From a virus (taxonomy: Duplodnaviria > Heunggongvirae > Uroviricota > Caudoviricetes), in the IMG/VR virus record IMGVR_UViG_2939177367_000003, positions 1 to 41,062 of that record: DNA of 41,062 bases; one strand, 5' to 3'. This document shows, in pieces, positions 32,745-41,062 of this stretch (positions are counted from its first letter, which is position 1; the number at the start of each line of letters is the position of its first letter). Below the pieces are notes generated by a model, which worked only from the letters and a program-made list of their open reading frames with translations, was not told where the DNA came from and searched no databases. Both the position numbers and the translations under genes were made by a program.

Positions 32745-33605
32745 TCACCTGTCGAAAAACACGTAGCCAGTTTTCGATACGGTGATTGCGGATGATGGTT
32801 TGGATTGTGGTTGAATAGTTTCTGGCTTCTCGTCGTTCCAGCGTTGACCGTTCAGGTAGCTCGATGGTAACAACCTGTCGAATCCGAACTGCTTACCATT
32901 CCTGCATGCGATGTCTTCTGCCAGCATCGTGGCAAACTCGCTTGCCGTACCCCTGGTAGTTTTACGCCATTCCCTGAACTGTGTTCTGAATGCTGAAGCT
33001 GCGTTTTTCTTCCCGGCTTTCCGCATGCCTGCACACCAGAATATTTCCTCGAATGCCTTGTCGGTTTCTTCGTGACGGTCAGATGATTTTTCACACTCCG
33101 TCCGAACACTTTCGGACATAGTGTTTTTATTATTTCTTTTTTCTTTTGTAATAGTTTCTTTTGTGTGTCCCTGTTTTGGTGACAGCGCTGTCACCGTTTT
33201 GGTGACACTTTTTGTCACCAATGTAGTGACATTATCACCAGAGTAGTGACACCCTTCGATTTGCCATTCCTCGATGTTCTTGTTAGGCCCGATTTGCTGG
33301 CCTTCGCGAAGGATAACCTTCATCGCGATAAGCTCATTCTTGGCCTTGTTTACCTTCTGTCTTGGCAGCCTGGTAATTTGAGCTAACTGACTATCAGAGA
33401 TGCGATCCATCTTTTTACCGTAGCCGTATGTTTTACGGCATATGGCGTGGGCAACCTTGCTCTGATTTTTCGTTAAATCTGCGCCGATAAGCTCTTCATA
33501 CAGGGCATTTGCAAGACGGGTATAACCATCTTCAACTTCTGCCACACGACGCTCCACAGGCCGTTGTGAAGGCCTTAAATGTGTTACGGTTGCAAGATTA
33601 CTCAT
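32745..33605 (-). CDS. Replication initiator protein, lambda O-like N-terminal domain
   Basis: [49 protein letters not shown] matches the replication protein O N-terminal family; iterons inside the gene. Confidence 0.7.
33116..33255. repeat. Candidate origin of replication: AT-rich tract plus iterons inside the O-like gene
   Basis: AT-rich 33116-33170; perfect 18-bp palindrome GGTGACAGCGCTGTCACC (33178-33195); four or more further GTGACA/TGTCAC repeats at ~10-13 bp spacing. Confidence 0.5.
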
Positions 33606-33744
33606 GACCTTTCTCCTTCTGCATCAGCTTCACCTTTTCCAACTCAGCCCGGAATCGACCAGGCTGCTTGAAGCTGGACAGGAAGCGATCACGTAGTATG
33701 TGTTTGTGAATTTTGTCCTGGTAAGGACTGAGTTGTTTTGTCAT
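33598..33744 (-). CDS. Small ORF (48 aa) between cII and the O-like gene
   Basis: ATG preceded by AGGAG RBS; stop overlaps the O-like start; not in the supplied ORF track (below length cutoff). Confidence 0.3.
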
Positions 33745-33776
33745 AATTACTCCTGTGGATTGATCCAGTAATTCCC

Positions 33777-34073
33777 TCAGAATTGCATATCAATTTGCTT
33801 AAAATCCTCGGTGGCGGCCGGGGATTTTTTCTTTGTGATTTCATCAAGCGCATACTTAAAAGCCCTGCTAATCGGACTGATGTCTGATGCCATTCCGAAA
33901 GCACACAAGACCGAAGCAATAAATCTCCAGTCCGTTCTGCTTATCTTCGATTCATGACAGCCAATCATCTTTGCCAGACCGCGCTGGGTAAGCGTTGACA
34001 GGTTGATGAGTAAATCAGTTTCAGCGCGATCAATTTCTCGCTGTGTTGGCTTGCTGTAGCTTGCTTGTGCCAT
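33777..34073 (-). CDS. cII: CII-like transcriptional activator
   Basis: C-terminus [19 protein letters not shown] parallels lambda CII TNKKRPAATERSEQIQMEF; central SKISRTDW vs SQISRWKRDW. Confidence 0.7.
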
Positions 34074-34141
34074 TTGTTAATTTTCCTATATTGATATTGA
34101 GTTATAGCGGCACACCCAATGGATTTGCCGCTGATGTTTGC

Positions 34142-34182
34142 TCACCCGGTTAGAGGTGAAAGGCCAGAACTGTTAAAGAGCA
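34142..34182 (-). promoter_or_regulatory. nutR-like site (boxA plus boxB hairpin) downstream of cro
   Basis: Minus-strand boxA TGCTCTTTAACAG (34170-34182), then hairpin UCACC-UCUAACCG-GGUGA (34142-34159). Confidence 0.5.
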
Positions 34183-34188
34183 ATTTGC

Positions 34189-34374
34189 TTATGCCGCTTG
34201 GCGGTAAGCACTTTCTTGATACTTCAGGGCGCCAGCTGTAACGATTTCCAATCGATAGGCGTCTTTCTCTGGGATAACTTCTTTCCACTGAGAGACTGCT
34301 GCATCGCTAATGCCTAGTGCTTTAGCAACAGCACGCTGGGTTCCGAAGTGGTCAATAACATCTTTTTTGTACAT
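34189..34374 (-). CDS. cro: Cro repressor (HTH)
   Basis: 61 aa; HTH QRAVAKALGISDAAVSQW; divergent from the repressor gene. Confidence 0.75.
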   Translation of the reverse strand: MYKKDVIDHFGTQRAVAKALGISDAAVSQWKEVIPEKDAYRLEIVTAGALKYQESAYRQAA

Positions 34375-34388
34375 AGACTCGCTCCGAA

Positions 34389-34454
34389 ATTAAAGAACAC
34401 TTAAATTATCCACCAAAGGAATCTTAAGTCAAGTTTATTTAAGATGTCTTAACT
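34389..34454. promoter_or_regulatory. OR operator region with PR promoter (P22-type 18-bp operators)
   Basis: Sites ATTAAAGAACACTTAAAT (34389-34406) and ATTTAAGATGTCTTAACT (34437-34454) fit ANTNAAG-N4-CTTNANT; PR on minus strand: -35 TTGACT (34427-34432), 16-bp spacer, -10 GATAAT (34405-34410). Confidence 0.6.
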
Positions 34455-35105
34455 ATGAATACACAACTGATGGGTGAGCGTATTCGCGCTCGCAGAAAAG
34501 AACTCAAGATTAGGCAGGCTGCCCTTGGCAAGATGGTTGGCGTGTCTAATGTTGCTATTTCCCAATGGGAGCGATCTGAAACTGAGCCCAATGGCGAAAA
34601 CCTATTGGCCTTAGCCAAGGCTTTGCAGTGCTCCCCTGATTACCTGTTGAAAGGAGAGGATAGTCTTTCAAACATTGCCTATCACAGCAGGCATGATCCA
34701 AGAGGTTCGTATCCTCTAATTAGTTGGGTAAGCGCAGGATGTTGGATGGAAGCTGTAGAGCCATATCATAGGCGTGCAATAGATAACTGGTACGACACAA
34801 CGGTAGATTGTTCTGAAGACTCTTTTTGGCTCGACGTTAAAGGCGATTCAATGACTGCCCCGGCAGGACTGAGTATTCCTGAGGGGATGATTATTCTCGT
34901 CGACCCAGAAGTCGAACCACGTAATGGAAAGCTGGTAGTCGCCAAACTTGAAGGGGAAAACGAGGCGACATTCAAAAAGTTAGTTATTGATGCCGGTAGA
35001 AAATTCCTGAAACCACTCAATCCACAATACCCAATGATTGAAATCAATGGGAACTGTAAAATCATTGGCGTTGTCGTTGATGCCAAGCTAGCAAACCTTC
35101 CTTAA
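34455..35105 (+). CDS. c2: Prophage repressor, P22 C2-type (HTH plus LexA-like S24 autopeptidase domain)
   Basis: Translation MNTQLMGERIRARRKELKIRQAALGKMVGVSNVAISQWERSETEPNGENLLALAKALQCSPDYLL... matches P22 C2 as recalled. Confidence 0.9.
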   Translation: MNTQLMGERIRARRKELKIRQAALGKMVGVSNVAISQWERSETEPNGENLLALAKALQCSPDYLLKGEDSLSNIAYHSRHDPRGSYPLISWVSAGCWMEAVEPYHRRAIDNWYDTTVDCSEDSFWLDVKGDSMTAPAGLSIPEGMIILVDPEVEPRNGKLVVAKLEGENEATFKKLVIDAGRKFLKPLNPQYPMIEINGNCKIIGVVVDAKLANLP

Positions 35106-35129
35106 GGGGCTTTCGCCCCTTTTTTATTT
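35104..35129 (+). terminator. Rho-independent terminator after repressor gene
   Basis: AGGGGC-TTTC-GCCCCT hairpin followed by TTTTTTATTT, starting at the stop codon. Confidence 0.65.
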
Positions 35130-35168
35130 CCCGTTAAAAATCAAAGACAAACTAAATTCACGCCCATA

Positions 35169-35224
35169 AAATTAAGTTTTCTTCAAAAATGCACTTGACC
35201 AATAAATTAAGAAGTCTTAAATTT
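35169..35224 (+). promoter_or_regulatory. OL operators with PL promoter
   Basis: Operator-consensus sites AATTAAGTTTTCTTCAAA (35169-35186) and AATTAAGAAGTCTTAAAT (35205-35222); -35 TTGACC (35195-35200), 17-bp spacer, -10 TAAATT. Confidence 0.5.
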
Positions 35225-35268
35225 AAGCCATCAGCAGGACGCTGGAAGCCAAACGGAACAGATTGGCA

Positions 35269-35309
35269 GGCTCTTTAACATCGACGGACTCTCAACCTAA
35301 CCGTTGAGA
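35269..35309 (+). promoter_or_regulatory. nutL-like site (boxA plus boxB hairpin)
   Basis: boxA GCTCTTTAACA (35270-35280) close to rrn/lambda boxA; 9 nt later hairpin UCUCAAC-CUAACC-GUUGAGA (35290-35309); loop motif CUAACC shared with nutR. Confidence 0.5.
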
Positions 35310-35419
35310 CCAGAACTTGAGTGGTTTTGGGGATGGCGCGAATTGCAGCTGCAAGACAGCGATCGAGAGGATAAGCACCTTGACGCGTCATGCGCCAAAG
35401 CCACTTAAAGGAGACCATC

Positions 35420-35725
35420 ATGGTAACCATTGTCTGGAAAGAATCCAAAGGTACGGCAAAAAGCCGCTACAAAGCTCGCAGAGCAGAACTTATTGCCGAG
35501 CGACGCAGTAATGAAGCACTGGCGCGAAAAATTGCGCTAAAGCTCTCTGGTTGCGTCAAAGCAGACAAAGCAGCATCACTAGGAATCCTTTGCTGCAAGA
35601 AGAAAGAAGAAGTCGTTCGAAAAAATAGAAGTATTTATTACAAAGATTCAACCCCATTAGGAAACAAAATACATGCAGTCCAAAAAATAAAATTGTACAG
35701 TAAACTACCGTACGGTGCTTATTGA
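35420..35725 (+). CDS. N-like transcription antiterminator (arginine-rich motif)
   Basis: N-terminal ARM KSRYKARRAELIAERR resembles lambda N (RRRERRAEKQAQW) and P22 gp24 (KTRRHERRRKLAIER); AGGAG RBS; first gene after PL/nutL. Confidence 0.6.
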   Translation: MVTIVWKESKGTAKSRYKARRAELIAERRSNEALARKIALKLSGCVKADKAASLGILCCKKKEEVVRKNRSIYYKDSTPLGNKIHAVQKIKLYSKLPYGAY

Positions 35726-36066
35726 GTATGCTTATGGTGAAAAAGACTATTTATGTTAATCCTGACCGCGGACAAAACAGAAAAGTATCTGATAGAGGTC
35801 TTACATCTCGAGACAGGAGGAGAATAGCGAGATGGGAAAAGAGGATAGCATATGCATTAAAAAACGGTGTAACACCTGGATTTAATGCTATAGATGACGG
35901 TCCTGAATATAAGATTAATGAAGACCCAATGGATAAAGTTGACAAAGCATTAGCAACACCATTTCCTCGCGATGCCGAAAAAATTGAAGATGAAAAATAT
36001 GAGGATGTAATGCACAGAGTTGTTAATCACGCTCACCAACGAAATCCAAATAAAAAATGGTCATAG
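35722..36066 (+). CDS. Hypothetical protein (basic N-terminus, acidic C-terminus)
   Basis: 114 aa ORF translationally coupled to the N-like gene; no recognisable motif. Confidence 0.3.
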   Translation: MSMLMVKKTIYVNPDRGQNRKVSDRGLTSRDRRRIARWEKRIAYALKNGVTPGFNAIDDGPEYKINEDPMDKVDKALATPFPRDAEKIEDEKYEDVMHRVVNHAHQRNPNKKWS

Positions 36067-36089
36067 CCCACTTCGGTGGGTTTTTTATT
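36066..36089 (+). terminator. Rho-independent terminator
   Basis: CCCAC-TTCG-GTGGG hairpin followed by TTTTTTATT. Confidence 0.6.
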
Positions 36090-36200
36090 GTCTGAACAAA
36101 CCTAATTTACTACCGCAAGCCACGCAGTGAAATGGGTGTGACTTGTGTTGGTCGCCAGAAAATGAAATTAGGCAGCAAACCACTGTATGAGGGGTGATCT

Positions 36201-36452
36201 ATGGAATTTCATGAAAGTGCGATTTATGATTTCCGCGCTAACGCAAATTCAGTAAAACCACAGCCAATTGCAGTTCTTTTTAAAACAATGGGAGCGTGGG
36301 CTGTTTTATGCTTCGCCGCTGATGACACTGACGCAAGAATGGCAATAGGCCAAGAGATGGAGATGGACCCGACAAACGATGAATTCATAATTTATGGCGC
36401 TCCATCTAATTACTTACTTGATACCTGCAACATTTACAACAAGGCTTCCTGA
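36201..36452 (+). CDS. Hypothetical small protein (83 aa)
   Basis: ORF with GAGGGG RBS; no recognisable motif. Confidence 0.35.
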   Translation: MEFHESAIYDFRANANSVKPQPIAVLFKTMGAWAVLCFAADDTDARMAIGQEMEMDPTNDEFIIYGAPSNYLLDTCNIYNKAS

Positions 36453-36491
36453 CGGTGGCCTTTATTTTTGGCATAAACAACAGAGGCTAAC

Positions 36492-36788
36492 ATGGAATTT
36501 AAAGGTACTGAAGGTAAGTGGAAAATAATGATGGATGGCGATGAGATTAAAATCATCCAGGCAGACTCACTTGAAAATGGCGCAGGCTGGCGTTCGTATA
36601 TTGCAATCTGTGAGGAAGTTCAATGCATTGAAGATGCCAATCTAATAGCGGCAGCACCTGACCTTCTCGAAGCACTTCAGTTATTACTTAAGCAAACCAA
36701 AAATAGAACAACGACAACATATCCAGAATGGTATGGAGCTGTTAATAAAGGTCTTGCAGCAATCAGAAAAGCTCTTGGGGAAGAATGA
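36492..36788 (+). CDS. Hypothetical small acidic protein (98 aa)
   Basis: ORF with AGAGG RBS; no recognisable motif. Confidence 0.35.
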   Translation: MEFKGTEGKWKIMMDGDEIKIIQADSLENGAGWRSYIAICEEVQCIEDANLIAAAPDLLEALQLLLKQTKNRTTTTYPEWYGAVNKGLAAIRKALGEE

Positions 36789-36947
36789 TGAATAAGAAAT
36801 ACATTGTTGAAGTTATAGAGCGAGGAACAAAAGAAGTAATTAAACATTTCGAATTTGATAATTATAGAAAAGCTGACCGCGTAGAAGAAGGATTGTTGCG
36901 ACAAAGTAATCTCGAAAAATTTGATGTTGTCATGCGATGCGAATAAG
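36786..36947 (+). CDS. Hypothetical small protein (~52 aa)
   Basis: ATGA-overlapped with preceding ORF; not in the supplied ORF track. Confidence 0.25.
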
Positions 36948-37039
36948 CGCCTATAGCAGATTTACGAGTCTGCTATGTGAGCAATGTCGCTCGTAACTAA
37001 ACAGGAGCCGACTTGTTCTGATTATTGGAAATCTTCTTT

Positions 37040-37064
37040 GCCCTCCAATGTGAGGGCCTTTTTA
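37040..37064 (+). terminator. Rho-independent terminator
   Basis: GCCCTC-CAATGT-GAGGGC hairpin followed by CTTTTTA. Confidence 0.5.
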
Positions 37065-37128
37065 TATGCATACCAATAACGCTTCACTCGAGGCGTTTTC
37101 GTTATGCAATCAAACAGAAGGAGCATCC

Positions 37129-37300
37129 TATGCAACAGTTCGCTATTGCAGGGGCGGCATCGGTTCGCCCTTTCAACCCGATTTTATCGGTACAGCATTC
37201 ACGAAAAAACATTTTAACCGGAGCAGACTTTAAACAACCAAGAATGAAAAGTTTGCTCGAAAAGCTTTGGGATATTTTGAAACAACAAGGCCGTCCATGA
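37129..37300 (+). CDS. cIII: CIII-like FtsH inhibitor
   Basis: MQQFAIAGAASVRPFNP...LLEKLWDILKQQGRP parallels lambda CIII (MQYAIAGWPVAGCPSES...LLERITRKLRDGWKRLIDILNQPG); AGGAG RBS at correct spacing. Confidence 0.6.
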
Positions 37301-37467
37301 GCTTTACAGATAACTGGTCAGACGAAGAATTCATTCGTCAGATGAAAGATTTAATCGGTAACGAAGGAGATATGCATGTCACTTGCAACCACAGTGAAGG
37401 AGAGCAAGTTACAGAGACGCATGTACACGCAGCAGGCGTTAATGTATCGCCAGAAGGGAGATCGTGA
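37297..37467 (+). CDS. Small ORF overlapping cIII stop (Kil-like by position only)
   Basis: ATGA overlap with cIII; 56 aa; overlaps the next ORF in another frame. Confidence 0.25.
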   Translation: MSFTDNWSDEEFIRQMKDLIGNEGDMHVTCNHSEGEQVTETHVHAAGVNVSPEGRS

Positions 37468-37546
37468 AGGTGTTCGCGTATTTTTAAATGCGGCAAAGAC
37501 TGAAGTATTAAATCAGCGTTATTTCCTTGGGCCGTGTCCATTCTGA
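37376..37546 (+). CDS. Small ORF immediately upstream of erf (Arf-like by position only)
   Basis: Strong AGGAG RBS 7 nt upstream; 56 aa MSLATTVKESKLQRRMYTQQALMYRQKGDREGVRVFLNAAK... Confidence 0.35.
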   Translation: MSLATTVKESKLQRRMYTQQALMYRQKGDREGVRVFLNAAKTEVLNQRYFLGPCPF

Positions 37547-37556
37547 GATCAAACAT

Positions 37557-38162
37557 ATGAGCAAAGAATTTTATGCAAGGCTGGCAGCCATTCAGGAGAA
37601 TCTGAACGCGCCAAAGAATCAGTACAACTCATTCGGTAAATATAAATACAGAAGCTGCGAAGACATTCTTGAAGGCGTTAAGCCGTTACTGAATGGCCTG
37701 TTTTTATCAATCAGCGATGAAGTTGTGTTGATTGGTGATCGGTATTACGTGAAAGCAACGGCAACTATTACTGATGGCGAAAACAGTCATACAGCAACCG
37801 CTCTTGCACGAGAGGAAGAAAGCAAGAAAGGAATGGATTCTGCACAAGTTACGGGAGCTACAAGCTCTTATGCACGCAAGTATTGCCTCAATGGTTTGTT
37901 CGGCATTGATGATGCGAAAGATGCAGATACCGACGAGCATAAACATCAGCAGAACGCAGCAGCAAAGCAATCAAAACCATCACCTACACCTGAACAGGTT
38001 CTAAAAGCATTCACTGACGCAGCATTGCAGAAAAACACCGTGGAAGAGCTTAAACAGGCGTTCGCCAAAGCGTGGAAGATGCTCGAAGGCACACCGGAGC
38101 AGCACAAAGCGCAGGACGTTTACAACATCAGACGAGACGAATTAGAAGGAGCGGCTGCTTAA
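37557..38162 (+). CDS. erf: Erf-family single-strand annealing recombinase
   Basis: MSKEFYARLAAIQENLNAPKNQYNSFGKYKYRSCEDILEGVKPLL... matches P22 Erf as recalled; start set at internal Met. Confidence 0.8.
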   Translation: MSKEFYARLAAIQENLNAPKNQYNSFGKYKYRSCEDILEGVKPLLNGLFLSISDEVVLIGDRYYVKATATITDGENSHTATALAREEESKKGMDSAQVTGATSSYARKYCLNGLFGIDDAKDADTDEHKHQQNAAAKQSKPSPTPEQVLKAFTDAALQKNTVEELKQAFAKAWKMLEGTPEQHKAQDVYNIRRDELEGAAA

Positions 38163-38545
38163 TGGCACATTCGATTACTGTAAGACTAAACAAACCCGCA
38201 AGAGAGTTTCAGGCCGGGGAAAATATCGGATTCAACATCCGTGCTGGCGTTCAGTATTACGATCGCCAGACAAAAAAGAAAGAATGGACAAACTACAGCG
38301 CCGTTGTATTTGCCAAGCCGGGAGCGCAAGCGGATTACTACCGTAGTGTTCTTGTTGAAGGTGGCATTGTGGAAATTACCGGAGAAAACATCAGGGTTGA
38401 TGTTTATCAGGGGCAAAATGGTCAATCAATCACTCTTGAATTACTGAATGCAAAGATTGGATTTGCAGCTTCAGGAAATGGCCCGCAGCAGCAAAGTAGT
38501 AACCAGCAGAACACTCCTGTATACGACGATTCCATCCCATTCTGA
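38162..38545 (+). CDS. ssb: Single-stranded DNA-binding protein (short phage SSB)
   Basis: OB-fold-like core and SSB hallmark C-terminal acidic tail ...YDDSIPF; AGGAG RBS; TAATG overlap with erf. Confidence 0.7.
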   Translation: MAHSITVRLNKPAREFQAGENIGFNIRAGVQYYDRQTKKKEWTNYSAVVFAKPGAQADYYRSVLVEGGIVEITGENIRVDVYQGQNGQSITLELLNAKIGFAASGNGPQQQSSNQQNTPVYDDSIPF

Positions 38546-38568
38546 TTTAGAAAAATAAGGATTTAATT

Positions 38569-38862
38569 ATGCCAGCGCCTCTGTATGGTGCGGACGACGC
38601 GCGCCGCTGTTCCGGCAATTCCGTATCGGAGGTGCTGGATAAATTCAGAAAAAACTACGATCGAATAATGTCTCTACCGCAGGAAACGAAAGAGGAAAAG
38701 GAATTTCGCCACTGTATATGGCTTGCAGAGAAAGAAGAACGCGAGCGAATTTACCAGACATCAATCCGACCATTCCGCAAAGCTACATATACCCACTTCC
38801 ATGAAATTGACCCGCGCCTGCGTAATTACCGCTCACGCTATGGCGCTATCAGTAATGACTGA
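38569..38862 (+). CDS. Hypothetical protein (97 aa)
   Basis: ORF with TAAGGA RBS; no recognisable motif. Confidence 0.3.
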
Positions 38863-38872
38863 GGAATTTACC

Positions 38873-39037
38873 ATGAGAGGTCTTGCATACAATCCCGGCA
38901 TTCTTCCGGCAGAAATGATTATTCGCCAACGCGTAAAGCCAATGCCATCGAGAGAGGAATTGCTTAAGAGAAATTCTTTTCCGTCAGTAAATCAAAACAA
39001 ATATCTGAATGCGATGTGGCGGAGTGGGAAGAAATGA
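38873..39037 (+). CDS. Hypothetical small protein (54 aa)
   Basis: Start set at first Met after the upstream gene's stop; ATGA overlap with the next gene. Confidence 0.25.
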
Positions 39038-39540
39038 AACAAATGTCACTAATTGAGATGGATGGATTTCTGAAAGGTAAATGCATCCCACGAGATTTAA
39101 AGGTTAACGAAACAAACGCTGAATATCTGGTGCGTAAATTTGCTGAGTTTGAATCAAAACTGGAAACGGCGTTGCGGGAGTGTCGTTCCGCTGGAATCAC
39201 GATTGATAACCTTGAAGCCAAGTGTGCGGCGCTGGCAGCAGAGAATGCGGGGATGAAGAAGTTCTGCAAAGACGCTGCATTCGATGCCGATTACGAAGCA
39301 GAGCTAGGTATGGAGCGTGGTGGATTCAGTGATGCGCTTAACGAAATCAAAACCCCAGCCACCGATGCTTTCCTGGCTGAAGTACGGGCGCGGGGGGTAG
39401 AGATGTACGCAGATAACCTCGACAACGGAGCAGACGACGCAGAACGAGGTGGTTTTGATTATGCCGTTAAGTTTCTACGCAGTGAAGCGTCTAGTGTACG
39501 TTTGTTCGCCGACCTACTTCGCAAAGTAGGCAAGCAGTGA
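39034..39540 (+). CDS. Hypothetical acidic protein (~168 aa)
   Basis: ORF with GGAG RBS; coiled-coil-like central region; no recognisable catalytic motif. Confidence 0.3.
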
Positions 39541-39737
39541 ACAAGATTGACTATCAGGCACTGCGTGAGATAGCAAAGCACCAGAGACTTACAGAAGAAT
39601 CAGCGAGCTACGCAAGGACTAACGCCTCACACTCGATGAGGCATTTTCATTTATCAAGATATCTAGACCTACCATCGCCGCATCAATGCGGTTTTTTATT
39701 GCCTGATTTGCAGGTTCGATTCCCTATTCGGAGATAG
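39537..39737 (+). CDS. Hypothetical small protein (66 aa, GTG start)
   Basis: GTGA-coupled to upstream ORF; its 3' end overlaps the tRNA-derived fragment at 39706-39723. Confidence 0.2.
   Translation: MNKIDYQALREIAKHQRLTEESASYARTNASHSMRHFHLSRYLDLPSPHQCGFLLPDLQVRFPIRR
39706..39723 (+). repeat. tRNA-derived fragment (T-arm-like ATTTGCAGGTTCGATTCC)
   Basis: GCAGG-TTCGATT-CC has the form of a tRNA T-stem/T-loop; it is the 5' neighbour expected for the attR core at 40017-40031. Confidence 0.4.
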
Positions 39738-39742
39738 CACTC

Positions 39743-39943
39743 ATGCAACACGAACTACAACCTGATTCACTGGTTGATTTGAAATTCATCATGGCCGATA
39801 CTGGCTTCGGTAAAACCTTCATTTATGACCGGATTAAGTCCGGCGACCTGCCTAAAGCCAAAGTTATCCACGGGCGAGCAAGATGGTTATATCGTGACCA
39901 TTGTGAATTCAAAAATAAGCTCTTAAGCCGCGCCAATGGGTAA
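39743..39943 (+). CDS. torI: TorI-type excisionase / recombination directionality factor
   Basis: 66-aa translation MQHELQPDSLVDLKFIMADTGFGKTFIYDRIKSGDLPKAKVIHGRARWLYRDHCEFKNKLLSRANG matches E. coli TorI as recalled. Confidence 0.85.
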   Translation: MQHELQPDSLVDLKFIMADTGFGKTFIYDRIKSGDLPKAKVIHGRARWLYRDHCEFKNKLLSRANG

Positions 39944-40016
39944 AATAGCGGGTAAAATATTTCTCACATCTAAAAAACACCATTCCAATCAATCCCCTGC
40001 CGCTTCAAGTAGATGT

Positions 40017-40031
40017 CTGCAGGGGACACCA
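40017..40031 (+). repeat. attR core: 3' end of a tRNA-Arg-like gene (CTGCAGGGGACACCA)
   Basis: Reads as T-stem 3' strand, acceptor 3' strand, discriminator and CCA; lies between torI and dsdC; embedded in dyad CCCCTGC...GCAGGGG. Confidence 0.6.
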
Positions 40032-40126
40032 TCCTTGTGTTTATCCCTAAAACCACATAAAAACCGTAAATTAAATTCGAACTAGCAGGCCGAATAAGGC
40101 ACACCAGGAACTCGTGGTTTTATTCA

Positions 40127-41062
40127 TTATGAAGTGGTTTTTACCTGTTCTCTTAGCCAGGTAATAAACGCTTCAATTTTTGGCCACTGCCTGCCCGGTA
40201 ATGTGGTGATGTAATAATGCTGATGGCATTTCACCGTCATATCGCCAAACGGCGCGACGAGCTCACCACTGGCAAGCCTTTTTTGTACCAGGCGTTTTCT
40301 TCCCATCGCCACCCCAATATGATTCATCGCGGCAATAACAGCTAAATCAGAACGATCAAAGCCAATTCCAGAAGATGTCGGCAAATTAACCGCATAATGT
40401 TGCGCCCAACTATGCCATTCATCCGTACCGGAGTCGTTGCTCCATGCCTGTCTGTCATGGAGCAACGTACAGTGACACAGGTTAATTACCGTGTTGGTTA
40501 AAGCATGTCTTTGAGCGTATTCCGGGCTACATACTGGCAGGATTTCTTCATCCATCAGAAAGTGATGAGTGAGTTGCGCTGACGGCGCATCATCAAAGTA
40601 GATCGCCAAATCGATTCCGGCACGTTGCAGATTGACGTTGTCATTACCAGTGAGCACGGTGAGCGAAATAGACGGATACCGGCGTGTAAAGTCACCTAAT
40701 GCGGGCACCAACCAGCATTGGGCGATAGAGGGCCGGGAATACAGAGTTAACGTTCCCGATAACTCCTGATTTTTGATATCAAGAATTTCCTGGTTCAGGG
40801 TATCCAGCGACGATTTTAGCGCCCAATAAACACGTTTCCCCTCGTGCGTTAATTCCACTTTGCGATGGGAACGAACAAACAACTGAATGCCCAATTCTTC
40901 TTCCAGCTGATTGATACGGTGACTTACCGCACTGGGGCTCAGCGACAATTCCTCTGCCGCCAGGGCGAAGGACTGATGCCTGGCAGCCACTTCAAAAGTA
41001 TGCATTTTTGATAATTGCCAGCCGTTAAGCAGCCGATTTCTTATTTCACGAAGGGGTTCCAT
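40127..41062 (-). CDS. dsdC: LysR-family transcriptional regulator DsdC (D-serine deaminase activator); chromosomal flank
   Basis: Full 311-aa translation MEPLREIRNRLLNGWQLSKMHTFEVAARHQSFALAAEELSLSPSAVSHRINQLEEELGIQLF... recognised as DsdC; start codon is the last three bases of the window. Confidence 0.85.
   Translation of the reverse strand: MEPLREIRNRLLNGWQLSKMHTFEVAARHQSFALAAEELSLSPSAVSHRINQLEEELGIQLFVRSHRKVELTHEGKRVYWALKSSLDTLNQEILDIKNQELSGTLTLYSRPSIAQCWLVPALGDFTRRYPSISLTVLTGNDNVNLQRAGIDLAIYFDDAPSAQLTHHFLMDEEILPVCSPEYAQRHALTNTVINLCHCTLLHDRQAWSNDSGTDEWHSWAQHYAVNLPTSSGIGFDRSDLAVIAAMNHIGVAMGRKRLVQKRLASGELVAPFGDMTVKCHQHYYITTLPGRQWPKIEAFITWLREQVKTTS

Follow-up and report, generated by a model that had tools for sequence, protein, structure and literature searches.

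Accessory genes in the early-left operon of lambdoid phages

In lambdoid phages, the stretch of the early-left (pL) operon between the antiterminator gene N and cIII is a variable slot that accommodates accessory genes, such as ral, sieB and ea10 in lambda, and ral, orf78 and gene 17 in P22 and ST104. These genes are small, non-essential, dependent on pL and N, and swapped as modules at short conserved junctions. The slot is known for unrelated passengers, and position within it is only a weak guide to function. In HK022, N itself is replaced by the nun moron, which is transcribed from a constitutive promoter, PNun. Nun is a transcription-arrest and lambda-exclusion factor, and the PNun transcripts reportedly stop after nun.

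We analyzed this region in a 41,062-nucleotide record of a member of the Caudoviricetes (IMG/VR record IMGVR_UViG_2939177367_000003, positions 1 to 41,062; hereinafter, the window), where three small open reading frames, ORF1, ORF2 and ORF3, are located in the same position and on the same strand as the slot genes of lambda, P22 and ST104. Like those genes, ORF1-3 are small, probably non-essential and swapped as modules at short conserved junctions, and, by homology, they appear to share the dependence on pL and N. A first-pass annotation had placed the three frames in this accessory slot, and indeed, ral, sieB, gene 17 and ea10 are found there in relatives. The frames themselves, of 83, 98 and 53 amino acids, are all present where they had been called, and the good ribosome-binding sites attributed to them correspond to purine-rich, Shine-Dalgarno-like stretches 5–9 nt upstream of each. 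However, the same annotation considered the three genes to be a moron-like cassette and the best candidates for an undescribed host-takeover or defense function, and on both counts our results differ. “Undescribed” was too strong because near-identical hypothetical proteins are already annotated in mEp043, APC_JM3.2, HK633, HK106 and VT2-Sakai, and near-identical copies of the genes are annotated as hypothetical in hundreds of E. coli prophages as well. ORF1-3 are real, conserved, ordinary catalogued “hypothetical” passengers of the lambda-like early-left variable slot; the sole moron-like unit at this locus is nun, directly upstream of them. As it stands, the stretch matters little and represents routine lambdoid mosaicism, with the three genes known from databases as conserved hypotheticals and both flanking terminators already described. 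What changes is the anatomy of the locus, in which the moron is nun rather than ORF1-3.

The nun unit and the tL2 block that flank the three genes

The prophage is a mosaic imm21 lambdoid. Positions 35103–35440 of the window are 99% identical to phage 21, and the coordinates of pL, boxA-L and nutL, which are annotated in the phage 21 record, were transferred to the window by offset. The pL start accordingly falls at about 35230, and the imm21-type nutL at 35270–35309 (plus strand, as are all the features described below), with boxA-L at 35270–35277 and the boxB stem-loop at 35290–35309. The antiterminator gene N (35420–35725) matches PHROG 271 (E = 2.3e-30) and, weakly, the Pfam N_peptide family; its product has a phage-21-type N-terminus, with the start codon aligned to that of phage 21 N, and the 3' third of the gene is the nun-linked allele.

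All three parts of the HK022 nun unit are retained downstream of the phage-21-type portion of N. The constitutive promoter PNun (35673–35701; −35 hexamer at 35673–35678, −10 hexamer at 35696–35701) lies within the 3' end of N, and both hexamers are the same as those annotated in phage O276, which carries the HK022 immunity region. The nun gene itself (35728–36066; 112 aa) was identified through PHROG 5632 (E = 1.8e-70) and alignment to O276, and is 96% identical to HK022 nun at the nucleotide level. It is followed by its intrinsic terminator (36065–36089), a 7-bp GC-rich hairpin with a U6 tract (about −10.3 kcal/mol) within the segment homologous to HK022; the stem differs from that of HK022 by a compensatory change (CCCAC/GTGGG versus CCCGC/GCGGG in HK022). 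Whereas nun replaces N in HK022, in the window it is located behind a functional N21 gene, the arrangement that is also found, with nun behind N, in mEpX1, mEp235 and PA28. The placement of ORF1-3 between N and cIII in the first-pass annotation thus holds as far as the slot is concerned but overlooked this 112-aa HK022-type gene with its own promoter. The nun unit is separate from the three-ORF stretch.

On the other side, ORF1-3 are followed by the tL2 block (36979–37067), a segment of about 90 bp that is common to lambda, phage 21, HK620, 933W-type Stx phages and others. The block is 100% identical over 92 bp to HK620, whose record contains the tL2A and tL2B annotations, and shows 95.5% identity to lambda; the phage 21 record contains an unnamed terminator at the position homologous to tL2A. 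Two predicted terminators, each a hairpin, are present: tL2A (37040–37064; assigned by homology to HK620 and annotated as tL2a in O276), with a 6-bp GC hairpin and a U5 tract (−10.7 kcal/mol), and tL2B (37078–37099; transferred by offset from the HK620 annotation), a second hairpin, spanning 37078–37097, just upstream of cIII (−9.9 kcal/mol, z = −2.75). We found no difference between the right terminator of the window and tL2A-tL2B of lambda and HK620, and consider it to be the same element. Next in the pL operon is cIII (37130–37300; PHROG 550, E = 1e-22), which encodes the FtsH inhibitor. About 370 phage records, both with and without ORF1-3, contain the tL2 block, which is covered to at least 80% in 322 of them, and in a blastn block map of relatives, it behaves as an independent block at differing positions relative to cIII: in some relatives, it precedes ea10, gene 17 or a homolog of Sf6 gene 33 rather than cIII directly. 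Across positions 33000–41062, terminator-like sites are enriched (20 versus 8.6 ± 3.5 in shuffled sequences).

The two hairpins with U-tracts on which the cassette was originally based are therefore homologous to annotated phage terminators, but the left one is part of the nun unit and the right one of the common tL2 block. Given that both are parts of neighboring, independently distributed and previously described elements, ORF1-3 do not form a self-contained cassette, and the single terminator-flanked unit that had been proposed dissolves. This affects the possibility that ORF1-3 comprise a moron-like, terminator-insulated cassette that is expressed from the prophage for superinfection exclusion or anti-phage defense, as might be suggested by the presence of sieB and gene 17 in the slot of relatives, the hairpin terminators on both sides, and a weak promoter-like site within ORF1 (36364–36391). 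We regard this scenario as quite unlikely. The terminators travel with nun or as tL2, not with the three genes; a scan for consensus-type sigma-70 promoters detected none on the plus strand at 36083–36200, that is, in the interval from the nun terminator to ORF1; the ORF1 genes of relatives adjoin N, at a distance of 9–58 nt and with no intervening terminator; and sieB and hkaP, the exclusion genes of the slot, are encoded on the opposite strand in relatives.

Coding status and modular exchange

Could the three frames be open by chance, with the region being a non-coding spacer or an RNA? The small size of the frames, along with the lack of matches in Pfam-A (local copy) and Rfam, would be compatible with this interpretation, but it is effectively refuted, with a negligible probability left to it. 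Among homologs with 70–87% amino acid identity from different genera, dN/dS of ORF1-3 ranges from 0.02 to 0.21 with saturated dS, which indicates purifying selection and hence real genes; lengths and Shine-Dalgarno sites are conserved in the homologs; and all three proteins have full-length matches among the PHROGs. An antisense frame of 70–90 codons opposite ORF2 and ORF3 is also kept in relatives, but given the saturated dS and low dN/dS of the sense frames, it was dismissed as a shadow ORF.

The stretch consists of two modules that are exchanged separately, [N 3' end + ORF1] and [ORF2 + ORF3]. In the blastn block map, the module junctions are short and conserved, and are located at 36102–36206, 36457–36484 and 36979–37067. 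The middle one is a 28-bp junction between ORF1 and ORF2; mEpX1 and HK633 each contain it as a block on its own, and in APC_JM3.2, it borders a gene insertion of 624 bp. Additional breakpoints, at about codons 52–58 and 89–97 of ORF2, are seen in E. coli genomes that match the stretch only in part.

ORF1 and its linkage to N

ORF1 (36201–36452; 83 aa) belongs, like VT2-Sakai orf20, to PHROG 2471, with residues 1–82 aligned to positions 1–82 of the 83-position profile (E = 2e-60). The protein is acidic (pI 4.2), with no predicted hydrophobic span, and dN/dS of the gene is about 0.1. It is encoded in 402 of the 5426 E. coli genomes, that is, 7% of the complete genomes of this species, including the Stx2 phages of O157:H7, an observation of some value. 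When 1.84 billion representative proteins were searched exhaustively with the ORF1 profile in HMMER, only about five true clusters were found; P0154 and P0155, which also scored high, are unrelated repeat proteins and were discarded as homologs. The structure model of ORF1 is unreliable (pLDDT 58).

The closest described counterparts of ORF1 are HK633_045 and VT2-Sakai orf20 (VT2-Sap20), the latter 97.6% identical to it, and both orf20 and ORF1 are first after N. In VT2-Sakai, orf20 follows N directly, whereas in the window, the nun unit separates ORF1 from the functional N gene. N and ORF1 are likewise adjacent, without an intervening terminator, in E. coli no107, HK633, and Citrobacter and Klebsiella prophages. 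In the window, ORF1 is immediately preceded by the relic of the 3' end of a second, lambda-type N gene (36102–36197), which translates to a segment ending in YYRKPRSEMGVTCVGRQKMKLGSKPLYEG followed by a stop. This sequence forms the terminal part of an intact N gene in E. coli no107, where ORF1 begins 9 nt later, and in the blastn map, the relic is a discrete block. The relic acts as the recombination junction with which ORF1 travels.

This observation bears on another potential role of the three genes, namely, tuning the early program of the phage itself, through N, CIII, Kil, Erf/SSB recombination or the lysis-lysogeny decision. In most of the examined lambdoid prophages, which span four genera and three N families, the gene that comes first after N is ORF1, and the neighbors of ORF1-3 are regulators and recombination proteins. 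However, recombination at the conserved N 3' end, which serves as a junction, accounts for the linkage to N; ORF1 is missing from the majority of lambdoid phages, among them lambda, phage 21, HK620 and P22; in Citrobacter L019, ORF1 is found behind unrelated genes; and relatives of ORF2 are encoded by unrelated virulent phages that have no N, cIII or Erf. A role in the phage's own program is accordingly rather unlikely.

ORF2 and ORF3

ORF2 (36492–36788; 98 aa) is a full-length member of PHROG 1273/PF27050 (E = 1.5e-32; residues 1–98 on positions 4–101 of the 103-position profile), the family that includes P22 orf78 and ST104 ORF18, the latter annotated as similar to P22 orf78. Almost all of the 120 listed ORF2 homologs carry a precomputed PF27050 assignment, and in P22-like phages, the PF27050 gene occupies the same slot as ORF2. 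Some RefSeq records name the PF27050 protein “XkdD/Y8K6 family phage-associated protein”, a name for which PF27050 is the apparent source. ORF2 is acidic (pI 4.75) and has no predicted hydrophobic span; dN/dS is 0.14–0.21, and the gene is present in 178 of the 5426 E. coli genomes. No copies were found on true plasmids. The label “nucleotide pyrophosphohydrolase” over an ORF2-like gene in OY979426 was dismissed as an annotation artifact because the annotated frame contains 7 stop codons.

The architecture of the family is unusual. ORF2 and the other PF27050 members share the N-terminal domain, the AAAPxLLEAL motif and the AISKALGEE tail, and between these invariant flanks, at about residues 63–88 of ORF2, lies a hypervariable middle cassette, such that the 120 listed homologs contain 89 distinct tails and at least 15 unrelated types. 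ORF2 of the window carries one particular cassette, LLLKQTKNRTTTTYPEWYGAVNKG. In the AF2 model of ORF2 (mean pLDDT 72.8), the N-terminal half is weak, whereas the C-terminal helical hairpin, which bears the hypervariable cassette at its tip, is confident. A conserved scaffold with a hypervariable hairpin tip fits fast-changing binding specificity, and the tail of the protein doubles as a coupling signal for the next gene. This combination makes the ORF2 family a reasonable candidate for anti-defense screens. The family is present also in virulent Mydovirus/Vequintavirinae phages (for example, kps8_030 of KpS8), which argues against an exclusion role specific to lysogens and, together with the lack of copies on true plasmids, speaks for a role in lytic growth.

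ORF3 (36785–36946; 53 aa) matches PHROG 6949 over its length (E = 6.4e-40; residues 2–53 on positions 1–52 of 52), with dN/dS of 0.02–0.11. Its start overlaps the ORF2 stop by 4 nt (ATGA), which implies translational coupling, and in the relatives examined, ORF3 is always located behind a gene with the same tail end. Two small genes with a 4-nt overlap, an acidic upstream product and a small, near-neutral downstream product, the second gene being faithful to one tail, could also be construed as a toxin-antitoxin or abortive infection-like pair. We consider such a pair very improbable: no toxin or antitoxin domain was found in Pfam, NCBIfam or PADLOC, no autoregulated promoter is visible upstream, and the pairing is not obligate in that, elsewhere, genes of the ORF2 family lack ORF3 or are followed by unrelated genes. 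Compared to type II toxin-antitoxin modules, the 4-nt overlap is the only shared trait.

Function searches and predicted expression

The first-pass annotation recognized none of the three proteins, which stands with respect to function but not to family, given the PHROG matches of all three. The profile and structure-prediction searches that it had proposed yielded no function. Scans against Pfam-A (a local copy without PF27050) and NCBIfam gave no match, PADLOC-DB 2.0 contained no defense family matching at E ≤ 1, and sequence and profile searches of the PDB returned chance matches only (E > 0.09). No PDB structure matched the AF2 model of ORF2 with E < 0.5, and in BFVD, the model matched only uncharacterized viral proteins. 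No likeness to two slot proteins was detected with hhalign: the probabilities were 0.2–0.5% for the profiles of ORF1 and ORF3 compared with phage 21 Ral, and at most 0.6% for those of ORF1 and ORF2 compared with ST104 gp17 (PF17420, the P22 superinfection-exclusion escape family). In the literature, we found no functional study of ORF1-3 or their families, and the three proteins are absent from the accessory-gene screen of Silas et al. 2025. A small RNA in the spacer between ORF3 and cIII was considered and dropped: Rfam detects nothing across 33000–39000, and the known prophage sRNAs of EHEC map elsewhere, to the PR' moron site (Tree et al. 2014).

By homology to characterized phages, a scheme for the expression of the locus can be proposed. 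In the lysogen, pL would be repressed, and the PNun transcript, the only constitutive one nearby, should end at the nun terminator, so that ORF1-3 are expected to be silent. Upon induction or infection, N would modify RNA polymerase at nutL, and the modified polymerase would proceed through the nun terminator, ORF1, ORF2, ORF3 and tL2A/B to cIII, kil and erf. ORF3 would be translated by coupling, given that the last codons of ORF2, GGG GAA GAA TGA, combine a Shine-Dalgarno sequence with the ATGA overlap. The products, which are small, soluble and mostly acidic, with no enzymatic or DNA-binding signature, would bind or modulate a host or competitor protein stoichiometrically during early lytic growth, and by analogy, ORF1-3 are most likely to be stoichiometric protein binders like Ral, CIII, Kil, Gam, Abc and gp17. 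On balance, we lean towards the view that ORF1-3 are N-dependent, delayed-early, lytic, protein-binding, non-essential accessory genes that lie in line in the pL operon as two modules, with no autonomous cassette.

A bolder proposal, to which we assign a low likelihood, is that PF27050 is a modular counter-defense scaffold in which the swappable cassette at the hairpin tip would set the host-immunity or competitor protein that is bound, whereas the coupled partner, such as ORF3, would be exchanged together with the tail. Retargeting of an inhibitor by cassette exchange would then be common to lambdoid and virulent enterobacterial phages.

Finally, promoter-like sites are fewer in this region than in shuffled sequences (8 versus 13.9). 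The site within ORF1, with 9/12 matches, could give some expression of ORF2 and ORF3 in the lysogen.

Organization of the early-left region

We established the anatomy of the ORF1-3 region, the ownership of its terminators and its modular structure, along with the coding status, family membership and distribution of its genes; the first-pass annotation is partly confirmed as an observation and partly supported as an interpretation. The window has the early region of a lambdoid phage, in which the pL operon runs on the plus strand. The genes for Cro (34189-34374, minus strand) and a cI-like repressor (34455-35105) are followed by N (35420-35725, plus), a 112-aa ORF identified as nun (35728-36066, plus), a hairpin with a U6 run (36065-36089), ORF1 (36201-36452, 83 aa), ORF2 (36492-36788, 98 aa), ORF3 (36785-36946, 53 aa, with an ATGA overlap with ORF2), a hairpin with a U5 run (37040-37064), a second hairpin (37078-37097), cIII (37130-37300), and then kil-like, Erf and SSB-like genes. 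Immunity is of the imm21 type: positions 35103-35440 are 99% identical to phage 21, whose record marks where pL and N start as well as boxA-L and nutL. All the ORFs and hairpins listed previously are present where they had been placed, each of ORF1, ORF2 and ORF3 is preceded by a purine-rich Shine-Dalgarno-like stretch, and the slot, in the pL operon between N and cIII, was correctly identified.

N is separated from the first hairpin by an ORF for a termination factor that resembles Nun (PHROG 5632, E = 1.8e-70; C-terminus ...NPNKKWS), and positions 35700-36083 show 96% nucleotide identity to HK022 nun. Both hexamers of the nun promoter, PNun (35673-35678 and 35696-35701), are identical to those annotated in the record of phage O276, which has the HK022 immunity region. 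The hairpin 3' of nun lies inside the HK022-homologous block, and its stem carries a compensatory change (CCCAC/GTGGG in the window vs CCCGC/GCGGG in HK022). Given the conserved hexamers and this stem change within the homologous block, the promoter, nun and the terminator form one unit, so that the window carries a complete unit of the HK022 type (35673-36089) between N and ORF1-3. This unit was absent from the first-pass list. King, Madsen and Weisberg (2000) reportedly found that PNun is active constitutively in a lysogen, with transcription from it expected to stop downstream of nun. Because the nun unit lies behind N in an imm21 phage, the lambda-excluding factor Nun accompanies imm21 and N21 in the window phage, a combination with the same placement of the unit as in mEpX1, mEp235 and PA28.

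On the right, positions 36979-37070 are 100% identical to HK620, the record of which places the terminators tL2A and tL2B exactly at the two right-hand hairpins. A total of 370 phage records contain this tL2 block, those of lambda, phage 21 and Stx phages among them, and the O276 annotation names the lambda copy tL2a. The gene after the block varies among the relatives (ea10 in VT2-Sakai, gene 17 in PA28 and a homologue of Sf6 gene 33 in HK633), so that the block is an independent shared element rather than the close of a cassette of three ORFs. The reading of ORF1-3 as a terminator-flanked cassette (36066-37064) thus fails on both sides, the left one belonging to the nun unit and the right one being tL2A/tL2B. 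The spacer between ORF3 and tL2 (36947-37075) is strongly structured (-40.7 kcal/mol, z = -3.4), contains an 11-bp hairpin (approximately 36952-36978) outside the shared block, and has no match in Rfam.

Two modules in a single operon

Module boundaries were derived from a blastn block map of the window against eight relatives. N, nun and the terminator travel as one block (35101/35228-36160), followed by a shared junction (36111-36206) that reads, when translated, as a lambda-type N C-terminus (...KPRSEMGVTCVGRQKMKLGSKPLYEG*). Directly upstream of ORF1, positions 36102-36197 are a relic of the 3' end of this second, lambda-type N gene (...YYRKPRSEMGVTCVGRQKMKLGSKPLYEG*), which marks the joint at which recombination introduced ORF1. 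In E. coli no107, an intact N gene ends in the junction sequence, with its stop codon 9 nt before ORF1 and no terminator between them. The ORF1 module (36168-36484) moves alone in HK633 and VT2-Sakai, and the ORF2+ORF3 module (36457-37063) moves as a pair in mEp043 and APC_JM3.2. The 28-bp junction between the modules (36457-36484) stands alone in mEpX1 and HK633; in APC_JM3.2 (locus L001, 2786-2797 and 3444-3455), it flanks a 207-aa gene, annotated 'Smchd1', that is inserted exactly between ORF1 and ORF2.

ORF1-3 are, then, in-line operon genes built of two modules. We found no promoter-like site between the nun terminator and ORF1, and the terminators are owned by the neighbors, so that the description of the genes as moron-like is not sustained. 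We infer that they are transcribed from pL only once N-modified polymerase passes the nun terminator. By homology to characterised phages, ORF1-3 would be delayed-early genes with N-dependent expression in the lytic phase, rather than prophage-expressed morons, and would be silent in the lysogen. The region keeps to the known lambdoid organization throughout.

The closest relative, from E. coli YZ3-11 (locus L004, 3461-3801), has about 340 bp without an annotated gene between the nun block and ORF1; mEp213 (locus L011, 1647-1979 and 3132-3404) has two different N genes in tandem in the pL operon, with an ORF2-like/ORF3 pair between them.

Coding status, families and distribution

All three ORFs are real genes under purifying selection against divergent homologues, with dN/dS of about 0.10 for ORF1 (~70% amino acid identity to Citrobacter and Klebsiella homologues), 0.14 for ORF2 (71%, Salmonella SI8) and 0.02 for ORF3 (87%, Atlantibacter), synonymous sites being saturated in these comparisons. 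Opposite ORF2-ORF3 (36677-36946, minus strand), an antisense frame stays open for 70-90 codons even in divergent relatives (L011, L015 and L017); it is probably a shadow frame because the sense frames combine saturated dS with low dN/dS.

The genes had been considered undescribed, which does not hold: ORF1 is orf20 of VT2-Sakai, and all three belong to PHROG families of unknown function (ORF1, PHROG 2471, E = 2e-60; ORF2, PHROG 1273, E = 1.5e-32; ORF3, PHROG 6949, E = 6.4e-40) and are common in E. coli genomes. Among 5426 complete E. coli genomes, 402 have ORF1 and 178 match the ORF2-3 stretch, with 63 of the latter matches covering 80% or more of it. The range of ORF1 is very narrow, with about 5 true clusters in 1.84 billion representative proteins. 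Two further matches to the ORF1 profile, P0154 and P0155 (E = 1e-34 and 3e-13), are long tandem-repeat proteins with many weak repeated stretches and were rejected as false positives due to these repeats. N is followed by ORF1 as the next gene in the examined prophages, which come from four genera, with a single exception, a Citrobacter locus (L019) where ORF1 follows unrelated genes.

ORF2 belongs to Pfam PF27050, which is precomputed for its homologues. ORF2 is related to ST104 ORF18, itself annotated "similar to P22 orf78", and one RefSeq copy of the family bears the name "XkdD/Y8K6 family phage-associated protein". Virulent Mydovirus phages carry relatives too, such as kps8_030 in KpS8; none was found on true plasmids. 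A 'nucleotide pyrophosphohydrolase' CDS over an ORF2-like gene (OY979426.1, 1833-2504 of locus L024) contains 7 in-frame stops; the real gene there is an 85-aa ORF2-family member, so that the label is an annotation artefact.

Search for a function

Searches of ORF1, ORF2 and ORF3 against Pfam-A, NCBIfam and PADLOC gave no match. Neither sequence nor profile searches of PDB yielded a significant hit, the profiles of ORF1 and ORF3 showed no relation to Ral, nor did those of ORF1 and ORF2 to gp17, and the papers searched make no mention of the three genes. The AF2 model of ORF2 has no fold match in PDB, and its BFVD matches are uncharacterised viral proteins only. These searches gave no function, in agreement with the first-pass annotation.

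With pI values of 4.2 and 4.75, respectively, ORF1 and ORF2 are acidic proteins; ORF3 is near neutral, and no hydrophobic span was found in any of the three. By analogy only, modelled on Ral, CIII, Kil, Gam, Abc and gp17 of the pL operon, such small acidic proteins might bind and modulate host or competitor proteins; the tip of ORF2, being hypervariable, would fit a changing target specificity. That virulent phages also carry members of the ORF2 family favors a role in the lytic cycle over prophage-mediated exclusion.

The mosaic ORF2 family and its downstream partners

The only mildly unusual point is the architecture of the ORF2 family, which belongs to the family and not to this window. Within its 98 aa, ORF2 (36492-36788; alignment A1 of family proteins) is a three-part mosaic. 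The N-domain, of at least 2 types, closes in the invariant motif E-D-x-x-L-I-A-A-A-P-x-L-L-E-A-L, the middle segment is swapped for unrelated sequences that vary in length (roughly 10-45 residues; 120 homologues show at least 15 unrelated types and 89 different tails), and the end of the protein, the tail A-I-S/R-K-A-L-G-E-E, is conserved. Recombination breakpoints in E. coli genomes coincide with the two conserved motifs (AAAPxLLEAL and AISKALGEE). In the AF2 model (mean pLDDT 72.8), the N-terminal beta-hairpin is weak and the C-terminal helical hairpin confident, with the variable segment at the modelled tip of the latter.

The tail codons vary at synonymous sites, indicating that the tail is conserved as protein, and always supply a small downstream gene with a purine-rich Shine-Dalgarno and a stop/start overlap, as in …GCT CTT GGG GAA GAA TGA TG, which combines the Shine-Dalgarno with the ATGA overlap (window 36761-36790; L011 2460-2504; L015 2955-3003; L017 2955-3003). 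In mEp213, Cronobacter and Atlantibacter, the ORF3 homologues each have a different upstream gene, all with the ORF2-type tail, which is shared in the Cronobacter and Atlantibacter prophages by otherwise unrelated genes just upstream of the ORF3 homologue. Genes of the ORF2 family also occur with other downstream partners or none. In E. coli YZ3-11 (L004 4413-4616), an unrelated 67-aa gene (…LRDYFAAKAMQAM…) takes the place of ORF3, with the same coupling to ORF2.
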